From a virus, in the UHGV virus genome UHGV-0039449: 44,033 nucleotides of DNA; one strand, given 5' to 3'. Position numbers and translations under genes: made by a program. The notes beneath the pieces are model-generated. The model had not been told where the DNA came from. It was given only the letters and a program-made list of their open reading frames with translations, and made no database searches. Shown here piece after piece: positions 8,870 through 42,237 of the stretch. Position 1 is the first letter of the stretch; each line of letters starts with the position of its first letter.

Positions 8870-9319
8870 ATGGAAAGTAATATCAAAGGGTTAGTTGCCG
8901 CCGGGCATGAGATGGCTTCGGAACTGAAAGCAGAATGTGGTGCCGTTGATATGCGTAGTGTGGCAAAACTGATCAGCGATTTGGCAACGCAACTGGAAGT
9001 GCAACTGGTGCGTGCTAATGCGCTGGCGGCGGAGAATGCGGGGCTGAATAAATTTATCGTACAGAGTTGCTACGTGTTTGATGGCGAGCAGGATGAACTA
9101 TCTGATGCGTATATCTGCGCAACAGACGGAGGTATGCCGCAAACCCCGGCTACAGATGCTTTCCTGGCTGATGTACGGGCGGTGGCGTTTGACGAGCTTC
9201 GCGCGGCGTTTGTCAGGCACGCAAAAGTTGCAGGACTGGATGATGCCGATACCGTAACGCTTAAGGAAGTGACAGAAGCATTGTTGCATTGTGCGGAACA
9301 GATTCGCTCGCCTGAATAA
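8870..9319 (+). CDS. Hypothetical protein
   Basis: 149-aa ORF in the nin-like region; no recognisable domain. Confidence 0.45.
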   Translation: MESNIKGLVAAGHEMASELKAECGAVDMRSVAKLISDLATQLEVQLVRANALAAENAGLNKFIVQSCYVFDGEQDELSDAYICATDGGMPQTPATDAFLADVRAVAFDELRAAFVRHAKVAGLDDADTVTLKEVTEALLHCAEQIRSPE

Positions 9320-38230: not shown

Positions 38231-38724
38231 TCTGGGCATTTGTAAAAGCATACCGTAAACAGTTACTTATCGTGGCGATGCTTGCTGTTCTGGTCATATC
38301 AGGAGTTGTTGCCTGGAATGTGCACGGCATCCGTCAGTACGATGCCGGGTATGCGCAGGCGAAGGAAGATCAGAAACAGGCTGATGATAAGTTAAGGTCA
38401 CAGCGTGAGCAGGAGAAAACACAAATTGAACGTGAAGCACAATCCCGTATCGATGCGGCGCGTGCTGATGCTGAGTATGCTAATTCCGCTGCTGACAGCA
38501 TGCGCGCCGAGCTTGACAAAACCAGGCGGCTCGCCGAACACTATACCGGATCTTTCCCACCTGGCACGCCAGCCAGCAAGGTCATCGGTGTGCTCGCCGA
38601 CATGCTTGAAGAAAGCAACCGAGTTTACAACGCAACAGCAGCTGAGGCTGAAAAGTATCGTATCGCAGGGGAATTCTGCGAGCAGCAATACGATTCACTG
38701 AAGAAGCAAAAATCGTGGCACTGA
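38227..38724 (+). CDS. i-spanin (Rz-like)
   Basis: 165 aa; N-terminal TM helix then charged coiled coil; overlaps the endolysin stop. Confidence 0.7.
38453..38701 (+). CDS. o-spanin (Rz1-like lipoprotein) nested in the +1 frame of the i-spanin gene
   Basis: [17 protein letters not shown] signal plus lipobox, Pro-rich mature part, fully inside the i-spanin ORF. Confidence 0.55.
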   Translation: MRRVLMLSMLIPLLTACAPSLTKPGGSPNTIPDLSHLARQPARSSVCSPTCLKKATEFTTQQQLRLKSIVSQGNSASSNTIH

Positions 38725-38869
38725 TTTCCGGTGACGGTATATAAAACGGTACGGGAAAAGTTGAGGCTTGGAAAAGTGTTATCACTCAATTGTTTATGGT
38801 TGTCGTAAATAATTGAGTGGGAGTAGGACTGGCTATAAATAGTAAATTAAGCCTTTCCAACTAACTTTA

Positions 38870-38901
38870 ATGCCAGTCAGTTTGCTGACTGGCATTTTTT
38901 A
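38870..38901 (+). terminator. Rho-independent terminator after the lysis cassette
   Basis: ATGCCAGTCAG-TTTG-CTGACTGGCAT followed by TTTTTTA. Confidence 0.7.
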
Positions 38902-39120
38902 TTGGTTTTTCATTGAGTGTATGACTTCTATTTTTAAGGCCGTAACTCTATAACATCGGCTATGGCCTAAAGATAAAAGCCATTACCAACAAAATGGCGG
39001 TATTCCAAAACAGTCTAGCCGGAAGTGCTTACAATGAGATCGATCAAATCGACAAATGAGATACTGGCCGTTGTGAGCGCCCGGCAACCGTAGCCGTAGG
39101 GGGCGAATTTAATGGCTTTG

Positions 39121-39897
39121 TTATGAGCCATTGGTAATCGCACCCATGACAATTTGAAAGAGTTCTTCTGCTCGATTAGTGGAGCCAATTGCACCTCTTT
39201 CTCTCGCCATTCTCTTGTGCTCTGGTAGATCTGAGGACGCATAGATCATAAAAGGAGTTTTGTCTCCCATTGCGCGTAATCTTTCTAGTAAGACATAACC
39301 TTCTTGCGCCCCTTCTTTGCGATCCATATCCGAAATAATAGCTGCAAACTTATTTGTTTTTAACAATTCTAAGGCTTCGTCAGTTGAAAGAGCTAAAGCG
39401 AACTCTATTCCCTGTGCCTCAAATGCCTGTCTTTCGTAAACATTATTTTCTGGTCGATCATCCACCCATAAAATACGATTTCGCCATTTTTCATGCTTAC
39501 TCTGCCGTTTTGCATTGGATACAACGTTGACGATTTTTCGCAGTTGGCTTTCAGTGACCCCTGCACTATTTTCAGGCTGTTTTGCTGTGGCGGCGGTCAA
39601 TGATGCTGCTGTAGCTATTTGCGCTCTTAAAAAATTATTTTCATCTTTGAAATCTGACGGCCCGTAAAGCTTATTATGATGTTTCGCAACAAGCCAGAGA
39701 AAGCCAAGAAACACAATGACAGGAAAGAAAACCATGAAATAAATAAGGGGAGCTATATGCTCTGATAAGCCATTACCAAAGCCAACGACGAAAGAGGCAA
39801 ATCCATAAACGAGAACAATAAAGAGTGCAATGATACCAAGAGGGCTTTTGGTAAATCCTATTGCAGTTTCAGCAAATTTCTCTGGTTCCATATCCAT
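39121..39897 (-). CDS. Two-TM membrane protein with C-terminal CheY-like receiver (REC) domain; orphan
   Basis: 258 aa. Two hydrophobic helices, then REC-like hallmarks: ILWVDDRPENN (beta1 acidic pair), AAIISDMDR (beta3 Asp), PFMIYASS (beta4 Ser). Likely start is the third codon, ATG 39891 (GAGG 6 nt upstream). No histidine kinase in the window. Confidence 0.5.
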   Translation of the reverse strand: MDMEPEKFAETAIGFTKSPLGIIALFIVLVYGFASFVVGFGNGLSEHIAPLIYFMVFFPVIVFLGFLWLVAKHHNKLYGPSDFKDENNFLRAQIATAASLTAATAKQPENSAGVTESQLRKIVNVVSNAKRQSKHEKWRNRILWVDDRPENNVYERQAFEAQGIEFALALSTDEALELLKTNKFAAIISDMDRKEGAQEGYVLLERLRAMGDKTPFMIYASSDLPEHKRMARERGAIGSTNRAEELFQIVMGAITNGS

Positions 39898-39984
39898 CCT
39901 CAGTATTGCTCATAACACAGTTAAGTTGTATTAGATCAGACCTGATCTGACAATTACCGGCTATTTATAAAGGTATCTGTCAGA

Positions 39985-40380
39985 TTACATCTGGCTTAAG
40001 TTTTTCTCATCCCAGATGTGCTTTCCATCAAGTAACGTTTCCATCGGCGTTCGGCCACTGCACATTTTTCCCTGATGGGTTCGCTCATTATTATAGTGAA
40101 CCCGCCATTCATCAAGAACCGATTGTAATGCTTCAAGATCATCATATAACTTTTTGCGGAACGTCACCTGATAAAACTCGTTCAGTATCGTTTTATGGAA
40201 CTGCTCGCAGATACTATTGGTCTTAGATGACATTGCTTTCGTTTTCGTATGCTCAATATCATTTATCGCCAGATAAAGCTGGTAATCATGCTGCTCCACT
40301 TTACCGCAATCTCTTGGTGTATTGAGAGGCGGGTTATAAAATAAATACTGATACCATGAGGGCGGATCAATCGTGGTCAT
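39985..40380 (-). pseudogene. DDE transposase remnant (IS481/IS3-like integrase core, internally deleted)
   Basis: 131-aa ORF with no RBS; SKTNSICEQFHKTILNEF and DEWRVHYNNERTHQG resemble the C-terminal motifs of rve-type transposases; N-terminal HTH part missing. Confidence 0.4.
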
Positions 40381-40395
40381 AGTATCAGGTCATTC

Positions 40396-41910
40396 TCATG
40401 GGTTTATTGCGTCCCTGAAGATGACGTCGCTGACCATCTCTCCTCCAAGAAAATCGATCAACATATTCGAGTTTTCAAGGTCTTCTCTGGTCAATGCCCC
40501 GATTGCTTGTCCAACTACTACCTCCCAAGGTTTTTTACACTCAACAATAGCACAGACGAGTTGGCGGATTTTCTTGATCTTCTTGTGACGCAATCGGTCG
40601 TTCGATTCCATTAGTTTTGCAATCAACGCTATGTCGGAGTGTGTTTGATTATCCTCAACCCATTTTTTGGCTGCGTCTACAAATTCCACCCATGTAACAT
40701 TCATTACTGCAAGGCATGAATCAGTCAAAAGAACATTTTCGATAGCGTAGCATCGTAAGCGATAGCGTTTAAGAGGTAGGCGATGTTCAAGCGACTCGTT
40801 GATTACACCATCGCCATCACGAAGGGAAAAGGCGATTGGATTGTCATAGAGTGTACTAAGGAGGTCTACGCAAAAATCCTCAAGTTGACTCTGTTGATCT
40901 ACGCTACCTGCTAGTACGGGAAAGATTTTTATTCGACCCTGTGATGTTCTGGCCGCTTGTTGCCAGACTCGTTCGTCGTCCTCTCCTTCCAAAATTAATG
41001 CAGCGTCTTCGCTAAGAGAAAGCGATAGGGGGTGCCCGAAGAATGGTGCAATCTTTCGAAGTTCATCGCTGGCCGGTATCAATGAGATTTCATTCACTGC
41101 AAAGCTCTTCGTGCCGATTGATACATATGGGGAGGCGGCAAGAGAACAGACGAGCGGGGAACTATGGGTGGATAAGCATATGGCAATACTGTTCGCGTGT
41201 GTTCTAAATTCGTCGAGCATACTGATTATCAGCTTGCCCAGTCTAGCTTGGAGGTCGGGGTGCAGATGTACATCAGGCTCATCGAGGAGGAGTACGTTGA
41301 ATTTCTCCGGATCTATTGTGTCGAAGAAATAGATGATTTCCGCGGCTAATGCAACCGCTTCCGATTCACCGCTACTGATTTGGGCCGGATCAATAATCTG
41401 ACCATCTACAAGTGATCGAAACTCATAATCGACATTACCCATCTCGAGCGAAATGTTAGTGAGAAGCTGATTAATTTTACTTAATCGGTCTGTCTGAAAG
41501 TTTCGCGTTAGATCAGTTCGAATTTCCGGAGTATTGGCAAGTCGACGTAAGTAAAGCGTCTCGGCCTCGCGAAATAGCATAGCCGATGCAGCTTTGAAGT
41601 TGCTTGCCTGATTAACTGCCCGAGTGTGCCTCAGCCATTCGGGGTTGTCGCTCATATTTGTGAGGACGGTGCCATCACGCTTGAACGATCCTGCTCGCTC
41701 TGGACTTACATACCGGACATAAAATTGCTGCTTGTTCTGGCTGATTGTTTGTTCGATATCACGAAGGAAACGACTTTTTCCCGCACCGTTTCGGCCCATA
41801 ATTATGTTGATGTTGTTTAAGCCGTAAAGTCGGCCAATTTGGCTAGATAACTCGCTTACTTTCAAGATTGTAACTCCATTTTTTGTTGCCACATACGATA
41901 TCAAATACAC
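40396..41910 (-). CDS. OLD-family ABC-type ATPase fused to a Toprim/DUF4435-like nuclease domain (OLD / PARIS AriAB-like)
   Basis: Walker A GRNGAGKS; signature-like ISSGESE; Walker B/D-loop VLLLDEPDVHLHP; H-loop STHS; C-terminal LILEGEDDE ... LRDGDG ... CYAIENVLL as in Toprim/DUF4435. Start may be TTG 41865 (GGAG 8 nt upstream) rather than GTG 41910. Confidence 0.65.
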   Translation of the reverse strand: MYLISYVATKNGVTILKVSELSSQIGRLYGLNNINIIMGRNGAGKSRFLRDIEQTISQNKQQFYVRYVSPERAGSFKRDGTVLTNMSDNPEWLRHTRAVNQASNFKAASAMLFREAETLYLRRLANTPEIRTDLTRNFQTDRLSKINQLLTNISLEMGNVDYEFRSLVDGQIIDPAQISSGESEAVALAAEIIYFFDTIDPEKFNVLLLDEPDVHLHPDLQARLGKLIISMLDEFRTHANSIAICLSTHSSPLVCSLAASPYVSIGTKSFAVNEISLIPASDELRKIAPFFGHPLSLSLSEDAALILEGEDDERVWQQAARTSQGRIKIFPVLAGSVDQQSQLEDFCVDLLSTLYDNPIAFSLRDGDGVINESLEHRLPLKRYRLRCYAIENVLLTDSCLAVMNVTWVEFVDAAKKWVEDNQTHSDIALIAKLMESNDRLRHKKIKKIRQLVCAIVECKKPWEVVVGQAIGALTREDLENSNMLIDFLGGEMVSDVIFRDAINP

Positions 41911-42169
41911 TAACTGAATAGGTGCGTTGATGCCTCATTTTGTTCACATCTATGTTGAAATTAGTGATGTGACCGAGCTAAGGACTCTATTAGGAGTAGA
42001 GCGGCCATATTGTTCGTCTGAACAGCCTGTAGACAGCTCTATTATTGAGACATGGTATTTTTCGTGGTATCTGCTAAGTGGTTTGTTTCAATGCATTGAT
42101 TTATTTATATTTTATTTTCTCATTGATAGCTGAGTGGGAATGATTTTGATCCCTGCACTATGAATGAAC

Positions 42170-42199
42170 AAAACCCTCTGTTACTACAGAGGGTTTTTT
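42170..42199. terminator. Hairpin terminator at the island/host boundary, downstream of yfgI
   Basis: AAAACCCTCTG-TTACTACA-GAGGGTTTTTT, with A/T runs on both sides. Confidence 0.6.
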
Positions 42200-42237
42200 A
42201 TCTTCAAGAATTATAGGCTTGAAGTTACTTACATCGA

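Follow-up and report, generated by a model that had tools for sequence, protein, structure and literature searches.

What could a receiver domain do when it is anchored in the membrane by two helices and encoded with no kinase beside it? The question is raised by a gene in the UHGV virus genome UHGV-0039449, a stretch of 44,033 nucleotides (nt) that we analysed whole and refer to as the window. The window is Escherichia coli chromosome with a complete phiV10/epsilon15-like prophage (integrase at 50-1300, lysis genes ending at 38724), and beyond the prophage an open reading frame (ORF) of 258 amino acids (aa) is listed on the minus strand at 39121..39897. We call this gene 2TM-REC, after the two transmembrane (TM) helices and the receiver (REC) domain of its product. 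A preliminary description, made from the letters of the window, had suggested a novel defence effector or the partner of a neighbouring ATPase. By analogy with known systems we tentatively propose that 2TM-REC is a self-contained, receiver-gated membrane effector of conflict or defence type. The evidence comes from the make-up of the protein, from the relatives of its two halves and from the way in which the gene has travelled.

Architecture of the 2TM-REC protein

The coding sequence and the predicted parts of the protein are as follows.

39898..39901, minus strand: Shine-Dalgarno-like GAGG, read from the sequence, with a spacing of 6 nt to the downstream Met3 ATG and of 0 nt to Met1
39121..39891, minus strand: 2TM-REC coding sequence, 256 aa from Met3 (RefSeq coding sequence; homologue starts; dN/dS well below 0.1)
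39682..39843, minus strand: predicted TM hairpin, residues 19-72, with TM1 at 19-41, a 5-residue periplasmic loop and TM2 at 47-72 (hydropathy, charge, structure model, conservation)
39631..39681, minus strand: juxtamembrane motif HHNKLYGPSDFKDENNF, residues 73-89 (conservation; low model confidence at 74-87)
39478..39630, minus strand: predicted Ala-rich helical linker, residues 90-140, variable in the alignment and joining the membrane module to REC (model helices)
39133..39477, minus strand: atypical REC domain, residues 141-255 (Pfam PF00072, Foldseek, PDB profile alignments, residue frequencies, identity to a REC of a VMAP system)

Comparison of homologues firmly shows the ORF to be a real, expressed-looking gene and no chance ORF, since its full-length relatives form 1,957 clusters at 90% identity and the proportion of nonsynonymous differences among them (pN 0.07-0.23) lies far below the saturated proportion of synonymous differences (pS 0.73-0.90). 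Saturated pS at such low pN also means that the family is an old one held by strong purifying selection, and that recent spread alone does not explain it. RefSeq lists the gene in an identical E. coli chromosome as WP_000433086.1 (39121-39891, 256 aa), with the label 'response regulator'. Met3 at 39891 is most likely the true start, because the spacing of the GAGG to its ATG is 6 nt and the homologue starts coincide with this position in the alignment; residue numbers given here follow the 258-aa frame (to 39897), not the 256-aa Met3 form. The G+C content is 0.40-0.43 across the gene, in agreement with the AT-rich setting first described.

Two hydrophobic segments lie in the N-terminal part of the protein, with centres at residues 20-36 and 53-65 (Kyte-Doolittle, 19-residue window, >1.6). 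They are linked by a 5-residue acidic loop and have K/R-rich tails on both sides, and because of this loop and these flanks we predict an N-in/C-in topology. AlphaFold2, run on a 20-sequence alignment (mean predicted local distance difference test score, pLDDT, 71), gives membrane helices at 19-40 and 45-72, disorder at 74-87 (pLDDT <50) and linker helices at 86-105 and 116-128. Hydropathy and charge show a predicted two-helix hairpin in the inner membrane, with the remainder of the protein cytoplasmic. The TM helices are nearly invariant in the homologue alignment. Among 146 relatives P19, G21, P59 and W68 are invariant, and H73, K76, L77, Y78, P80 and D82 of the juxtamembrane motif are invariant or near-invariant.

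For the C-terminal domain the preliminary description had proposed that a profile search and a structure prediction should decide between a REC, a TIR-like and a SLOG-like fold, and the outcome of both is REC. Pfam Response_reg (PF00072) matches residues 142-237 (E=1.8e-7, 31.7 bits against a gathering cut-off of 30.2 bits), AlphaFold2 folds residues 141-255 into a (beta-alpha)5 domain whose block-mean pLDDT is mostly 81-90, and the best 50 Foldseek matches in the PDB are all receivers (6ont, PrrA, CheY4, PhoP), with a target-normalised template-modelling score of about 0.8. Compared with the PDB, the family profile finds receiver domains only, and a structure search of a viral structure library gave generic receivers only. 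Since Pfam, the PDB profile and Foldseek all give a receiver, a TIR or SLOG fold was ruled out and the predicted fold is that of a REC domain. On the architecture as a whole, two TM helices with a C-terminal receiver, hydropathy, AlphaFold2, Pfam and Foldseek agree with the original description.

The residues of the pocket qualify this picture. D146 and D147 (39457-39462) are each found in 145 of the 146 relatives and D190 (39328-39330) in 144, and R193 is invariant inside a DMGRxEG loop. All three motifs that had been taken as receiver hallmarks are present, ILWVDD at 142-147, ISDMD at 188-192 and YASS at 219-222, but the serine of YASS is not the canonical Thr/Ser, because in the PDB profile alignment the position of CheY Thr87 is held by Ala220 (119 of 146 relatives have Ala there, and Thr/Ser is confined to distant members). 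The conserved serine is S222, two residues past that position. Arg242 stands at the position of CheY Lys109, where relatives have Arg or Asp and just 6 of the 146 have Lys. Of the features of a canonical receiver, the fold and the Asp triad are present and the Thr/Ser at the end of beta4 and the Lys at the end of beta5 are not. The alignments show a putative Mg2+/phospho-aspartate pocket that has been kept, with the canonical Lys lost and, in the 2TM-REC subfamily, the Thr too.

No histidine kinase is annotated in the 44-kb window, as had been noted before, and none was found around 45 homologous loci, so that the homologues are not response regulators always encoded beside such a kinase. All-against-all ORF clustering of these 45 genome loci, each with 2TM-REC or a relative, found local synteny but no other neighbour family in common. 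A Pfam census of 128 flanking proteins found no recurring family, kinase families included, and the 10 same-strand upstream neighbours are heterogeneous by Pfam (PDDEXK_3, peptidase S51, AMP-binding, Endonuclease_NS, patatin). With nothing in common in the clustering or among the upstream neighbours, a conserved neighbour or operon partner was rejected. The gene has no linked cognate kinase and no partner gene at these loci; a kinase encoded elsewhere could still act on it. The protein matches no PADLOC model, which bears out the earlier failure to recognise it as a member of a named defence family.

Relatives of the receiver and of the hairpin

A translated plasmid search aligned 117 residues of the receiver with positions 576-692 of a Rhizobium protein of 1,509 aa (44% identity, E 2e-23), and a motif scan of viral contigs extended the clade.

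L058:5276-9805: Rhizobium giant protein (Rhizobium phaseoli plasmid), with a REC domain of this clade and a SLOG domain
L070:8042-8800, L073:35-904, L076:7138-7773 and L077:9972-10832: single-TM REC proteins on IMG/VR contigs, from the motif scan

The gene for the Rhizobium protein immediately follows one for a MoxR ATPase and lies beside genes for a VMAP protein (EAD5, VMAP-M4, VMAP-C) and a trypsin-like peptidase, and the receiver of the protein has the signatures WVDDxPxNN, DMGRxEG, IYA and G.TN..ELF in common with that of 2TM-REC. On viral contigs the same REC clade ends a 1,211-aa protein (L080:7540-11175), and the 329-aa ORF before it is probably a MoxR, judging by its size and a position equivalent to that of the Rhizobium MoxR. 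In the four small proteins listed, a receiver of the clade is joined to an N-terminus with a single TM segment and no relation to the hairpin, and because this fusion exists too, membrane anchoring of the clade is recurrent. The N-terminus of the four reads ..WP.(L/A)(I/V)V.. and continues with a short strand motif of G-F-E-(L/I) type, and no Pfam model covers it. Kaur et al. (2020; PMC7159879) place REC among the vWA-associated effector domains, without a histidine kinase, and by their composition the L058 and L080 proteins look like examples of this kinase-less REC 'effector' position in VMAP ternary systems. The comparison firmly shows the predicted 2TM-REC receiver to be kin to those of conflict systems. 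Like 2TM-REC, the receivers of these MoxR-vWA (VMAP) systems are without a kinase; they lie within proteins of >1,200 aa beside MoxR and VMAP genes, whereas that of 2TM-REC is fused to a hairpin and encoded alone. No MoxR, vWA or VMAP gene was found in the window, and none recurs at the homologous loci.

The hairpin has relatives of its own. While an ordinary homologue search with the N-terminal 100 residues gave only short proteins or fragments, an exhaustive representative search with residues 1-100 gave 1,306 representative clusters at 50% identity, of which 796 fell below 1e-10. Across the best 136 clusters the hairpin and the motif H-x-x-K-L-Y-G/A-P-x-D-F (HxxKLYGPSDF) stay constant from one C-terminal domain type to the next, and the C-termini themselves fall into 31 unrelated groups. 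A PD-(D/E)xK domain with its E..D..ExK signature intact and with weak NERD matches is found in 41 of these clusters, a REC domain in 31 and a prokaryotic YEATS (pYEATS) domain in 6; the remaining partners are winged-helix (wHTH), Nuc_deoxyrib_tr/TIR-like, HamA-like, CBM-like or unassigned domains, the Nuc_deoxyrib_tr/TIR-like one with a PADLOC TIR effector match at 3e-8. The hairpin has no Pfam, NCBIfam or PADLOC model (a Pfam/PADLOC scan up to E 1 was empty), and its sole match was phrog_26238, a PHROG with no assigned function. By these profile comparisons the hairpin with HxxKLYGPSDF is firmly shown as what appears to be a large undescribed module with shuffled C-terminal partners.

Shedu with an N-terminal TM segment was considered as the identity of the nuclease-bearing relatives and was rejected; the Shedu paper mentions no membrane forms and the PADLOC SduA matches are marginal. 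On a 45-kb viral contig from IMG/VR, a 338-aa hairpin member with a nuclease-like C-terminus (L057:7974-8990) adjoins a Dam-like methyltransferase and a HigB/HigA-like toxin-antitoxin pair. In the literature we found no mention of WP_000433086, of the guaA-yfgI island in which 2TM-REC lies, of pYEATS by that name or of membrane-anchored response regulators, and the only mention of REC in DefensePredictor concerns another predicted system.

Relatives of the whole 2TM-REC protein, 58-98% identical, occur in Proteobacteria, Bacteroidota, Chlorobi, Kiritimatiellae, Cloacimonadota, Acidobacteria and others, with about 70% identity between Proteobacteria and Bacteroidota. Between loci nucleotide similarity ends within about 20 nt of the ORF borders, and in most loci the gene has a G+C content below that of its flanks. 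In Vibrio cyclitrophicus it is a chromosomal integron cassette, whose stop codon is immediately followed by one copy of a 121-nt repeat family of attC type (L084:8771-8891), and an integrase lies at the end of the array. The same array (L083-L086) holds ParE/Phd and TacT/TacA toxin-antitoxin pairs, a HEPN_RiboL-PSP protein, several insertion sequence (IS) copies and a pair of AAA_15 ATPase and DUF4435 genes (PARIS-like, AriA/DUF4435). The context in Agarilytica resembles a cassette array, and an integron cassette is likely there. Direct repeats of 51-125 nt surround the gene in Glaciecola, Winogradskyella and Ancylomarina.

L016:7724-7774 and about 8897-8947; L031:6939-7045; L019 (four copies): flanking direct repeats, from a repeat-based search

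These repeats, which in Winogradskyella enclose a DNA/RNA non-specific endonuclease as well, suggest cassette-like units outside the classical Vibrio integrons. In one Dickeya strain an AlpA/primase island with 98-nt repeats at its borders has the gene at its cargo end, in another the gene lies among core genes, and in Buttiauxella and a metagenomic lineage it is a plain insertion between housekeeping genes. The repeat-based search found cassette-type repeats in some lineages only, and an integron cassette is probably not the general explanation. Movement of the gene between phyla as a single-ORF cassette, including by integron, is nonetheless what the compared loci firmly show, as far as sequence can tell. 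Searches by a strict attC pattern and by a gapless inverted-repeat score had no hits, a negative that says little because both detectors missed the genuine Vibrio attC as well; no attC was detectable in the E. coli window.

A proposed receiver-gated effector and its alternatives

Several known systems suggest how such a protein might work. The TM effectors of nucleotide-signalling defence (Cap14 and Cap15 of CBASS, PycTM of Pycsar, Cam1/CARF-TM of type III CRISPR, and SLATT) combine, like 2TM-REC, an N-terminal TM part and a cytoplasmic sensor in one small protein, and the logic proposed here, that the state of the sensor controls membrane integrity, would be the same. A few members of the wider hairpin family give marginal PADLOC matches to the TM+CARF, CARF_TM and PycTM models (E ~1e-3). 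Unlike these effectors, 2TM-REC is a solo gene with no cyclase or CRISPR partner found at the homologous loci, and its sensor is a REC and not a SAVED, CARF or cNMP-binding domain; it has no hidden Markov model match to SLATT or PycTM, and its hairpin with HxxKLYGPSDF is a distinct module. In Detocs, shown by experiment to be anti-phage, a kinase (DtcA) of the system's own is needed, a buffer REC (DtcB) and a REC-effector (DtcC) complete the system, and a minority of the effectors are transmembrane (Rousset et al. 2023, 10.1101/2023.01.24.525353). A receiver there controls an effector in anti-phage defence, as it may in 2TM-REC. Detocs is, however, a three-gene operon with the REC of DtcC at the N-terminus, whereas 2TM-REC has a C-terminal REC and neither an adjacent kinase nor a second REC gene. 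With CheY-like response regulators (PF00072) the protein has the (beta-alpha)5 fold, the acidic pocket and the phospho-acceptor Asp in common; unlike them it is anchored in the membrane, lacks an output domain and a linked cognate kinase, has Arg/Asp at the Lys109 and Ala at the Thr87 position, and is the product of a sporadic, horizontally moved accessory gene. 2TM-REC lacks what defines canonical response regulators, Detocs, SLATT/PycTM-type effectors, VMAP systems and OLD/PARIS pairs, and resembles several of them in logic.

On the reading that we tentatively prefer, 2TM-REC would be a one-gene module with the logic of Cap14/15, PycTM, Cam1, SLATT and the REC-controlled effectors of Detocs. 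REC would be the switch, set by phosphorylation from a small universal phosphodonor such as acetyl phosphate or by the loss of phosphorylation, or alternatively by a ligand or an invader protein bound in the acidic pocket. The altered state or dimerisation of REC would be relayed via the linker to the hairpins, which would re-pack or oligomerise and so compromise the membrane, and the outcome would be growth arrest or abortive infection. We infer the conflict or defence role, the assignment of REC as switch and of the hairpin as effector, and the nature of the signal. Such a role is plausible because the REC clade is shared with VMAP systems, the module is shuffled with nuclease, pYEATS, TIR-like and HamA-like domains, and the gene is found in integron or satellite-like contexts. 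We favour REC as the switch and the hairpin as the effector because wHTH, pYEATS, CBM-like and REC domains are implausible toxins and the design mirrors that of Cap14/15, PycTM, Cam1 and SLATT. A constant effector with variable sensors also fits better than the reverse, because all of the partners can bind ligands and only some could be toxic.

A number of observations weigh against this preference. The hairpin matches no SLATT, PycTM or other pore model, and the PADLOC matches of the wider family are only marginal. With Ala at the Thr87 and Arg at the Lys109 position, phosphorylation of the domain is doubtful either way. The immediate neighbours are mostly housekeeping genes, about 10 of the 128 flanking proteins having strong PADLOC matches, and several loci are plain insertions between core genes. 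On viral contigs the family is rare; of about 8 loci, 4 are the E. coli islet, taken in by prophage prediction. Conservation is very strong, at 65-88% amino-acid identity across phyla with dS saturated. Immune sensors usually diversify, and conservation of this degree points instead to a universal cellular ligand or partner. Lastly, the commonest sister architecture keeps a catalytic nuclease motif, which fits equally well a hairpin that is anchor or sensor for a C-terminal output.

That opposite polarity is a serious rival, though we regard it as rather unlikely. It would have the hairpin and juxtamembrane motif sense a perturbation of the envelope or membrane, or position the protein where foreign DNA enters, and the output would be destructive in the nuclease, TIR-like and HamA-like relatives; the output of REC would be a phosphoryl sink, a phosphatase-like activity or a docking surface that interferes with the signalling of host or invader. 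The largest sister group, with its intact PD-(D/E)xK motif, speaks for this arrangement, as do the TIR-like and HamA-like partners, which are classical effectors, the position of REC as effector in vWA proteins (Kaur et al., PMC7159879) and a conservation of the hairpin far beyond the needs of a simple anchor. It is harder to square with the wHTH, pYEATS, CBM-like and REC partners, which are not known as toxic outputs, and with the 45-locus clustering, which links no downstream target to the gene. We also know of no precedent for a REC domain as a terminal effector. A role outside defence, a further serious rival that we hold to be rather unlikely, would make 2TM-REC an orphan response regulator tethered to the membrane. 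Acetyl phosphate or an unlinked host histidine kinase would phosphorylate it, it would tune a membrane process (transport, envelope stress or ion homeostasis, for example), and cassettes would carry it because it is adaptive in some niches. The RefSeq label, the invariant Asp triad and the many loci among housekeeping genes agree with such a role, and purifying selection across phyla would suit a universal cellular interaction; integron cassettes carry many non-defence adaptive genes. A sporadic (0.5% of E. coli genomes), phylum-hopping gene of low G+C that lacks the canonical Lys and Thr is, on the other hand, not what this role would lead one to expect. Nor is there a linked kinase at the 45 loci, and the need for a cognate kinase is hard to reconcile with transfer between phyla, while the closest REC relatives and the sister architectures are of conflict type.

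The remaining alternative concerns the genes next to 2TM-REC in the window.

38827..42237: guaA-yfgI islet, 3.4 kb, with 2TM-REC, an IS transposase fragment and an OLD/PARIS-like ATPase (from strain L001, K-12, the prophage junction and a genome survey)
39985-40380: truncated IS transposase fragment (rve_3; Pfam)
40396-41865, minus strand: OLD/PARIS-like ATPase (Pfam AAA_15/AAA_21; PADLOC AriAB)

The truncated rve_3 fragment and the AAA_15/AAA_21 ATPase do adjoin 2TM-REC as first described, and a two-gene system of 2TM-REC and this ATPase, separated by the IS insertion, would account for the same order in E. coli, Klebsiella and Kluyvera. In one Vibrio integron array, moreover, an AriA-like ATPase and a DUF4435 protein lie about 6 kb from 2TM-REC. 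Comparison of neighbourhoods, which the preliminary description had suggested as the way to see whether an OLD/DUF4435 ATPase is a constant companion, makes such a system very improbable. The pairing is confined to one near-identical enterobacterial islet (97.8-100% nucleotide identity), and at every other 2TM-REC locus in the 45-locus clustering the ATPase is absent from the neighbourhood. The ATPase in turn occurs solo: P. aeruginosa and Enterobacter have it next to guaA and Sphingobium has it at another site, in no case with 2TM-REC; in one Klebsiella strain it is split by an IS while the REC gene is intact. Because both genes occur separately elsewhere, the ATPase is not a partner torn away by the IS, and the two genes appear to be independent cargo of a variable site downstream of guaA.

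If 2TM-REC is the receiver-gated effector that we prefer, a receiver domain would act in immunity without a kinase. What Detocs does with three genes would then have a single-gene counterpart, the kinase-less RECs of MoxR-vWA conflict systems would gain a function, and a large unannotated family of membrane-anchored single-gene modules would have been uncovered. A bolder version, for which we claim little probability, is that 2TM-REC is the founding case of a kinase-independent 'one-component' receiver switch, in which REC responds to a universal small phosphodonor or some other conserved cue inside the cell and directly gates a two-helix membrane effector, and that the hairpin represents a large superfamily of single-protein, membrane-based immune modules (about 1,300 clusters at 50% identity). 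The swappable domains (nuclease-fold, REC, pYEATS, wHTH, TIR-like, HamA-like) would then link various infection cues, one to each domain, to a shared membrane output, and the modules would spread as integron cassettes and small islets. The domain shuffling provides natural chimeras for telling the sensing half from the acting half, and the gene is directly testable, since it is self-contained, has a length of 0.77 kb and occurs in E. coli and Klebsiella from the clinic. Even if the role is not one in defence, an identity of about 70% between Proteobacteria and Bacteroidota for a cassette-borne gene points to a universal cellular target.

The guaA-yfgI islet and flanking features

The junction of prophage and chromosome is at 38811/38812, within the final 15 nt of guaA, and the islet lies beyond it. 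Just 92 bp separate yfgI from guaA in K-12, and prophage-free strains (L001) have the same order as the window, guaA, REC gene, IS fragment, ATPase and yfgI. The islet is present in 28 of 5,426 complete E. coli genomes (0.5%), with or without the prophage, always in single copy and at least 99.7% identical, and also in Klebsiella and Kluyvera. A protein search of phage records gave no matches. Because prophage-free strains carry the same order, the gene is cargo of a chromosomal islet and not of the phage; the location of the junction and the lack of phage-record matches likewise led us to reject prophage cargo. The position between the lysis cassette and yfgI, by which the gene was first placed, has no functional meaning, as the islet between guaA and yfgI exists without the prophage.

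The ATPase (489-504 aa) combines an ABC-type AAA_15/AAA_21 domain with a weak DUF4435/Toprim region, whose Toprim-like motif reads LILEGEDDE...LRDGDG, and its PADLOC matches are to the AriA/AriAB (AriAB 2.6e-14) and PDC-M01A models. The family is conserved as a solo gene, with 66-94% identity among its members in Enterobacteria, Pseudomonas, Rhizobiales and sphingomonads (L062, L063, L066); three different genera have it next to guaA. Insertions of several kinds use the 3' end of guaA (38713-38826 in the window). In P. aeruginosa a conjugative element (TrbI, nSTAND NTPase) lies between the ATPase and guaA, and the guaA-downstream site of Enterobacter has instead a 302-aa protein with a HEPN-like RNNVAH motif (L063:7309-8217). 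The site in E. coli appears to behave as a variable hotspot with defence-like cargo, judged by the OLD/PARIS-like ATPase and, in Enterobacter, the HEPN-like protein.

Downstream of 2TM-REC the window has one further feature.

38979..38998, minus strand: terminator-like hairpin, about 120 nt past the stop codon, from a consensus scan only, in a region that folds no better than shuffles

It lies within an imperfect 140-nt inverted repeat (AACAAAGCCATTA ... TAATGGCTTT) at 38975-39120 on the minus strand, which starts immediately past the stop codon and whose folding is not better than that of shuffled sequence (z = -0.38). The repeat could be only a terminator, or possibly a decayed attC; the folding result speaks against an attC relic downstream of the E. 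coli gene.

At the locus of a 2TM-REC homologue in Pseudomonas cavernicola (L089:5553-6922), two overlapping genes, one of the adenosine-deaminase family and one Ham1-like (ITPase), lie about 1 kb upstream of the homologue. The pair lies in a stretch of unannotated ORFs and is reminiscent of deaminase-based defence with a self-protection partner.

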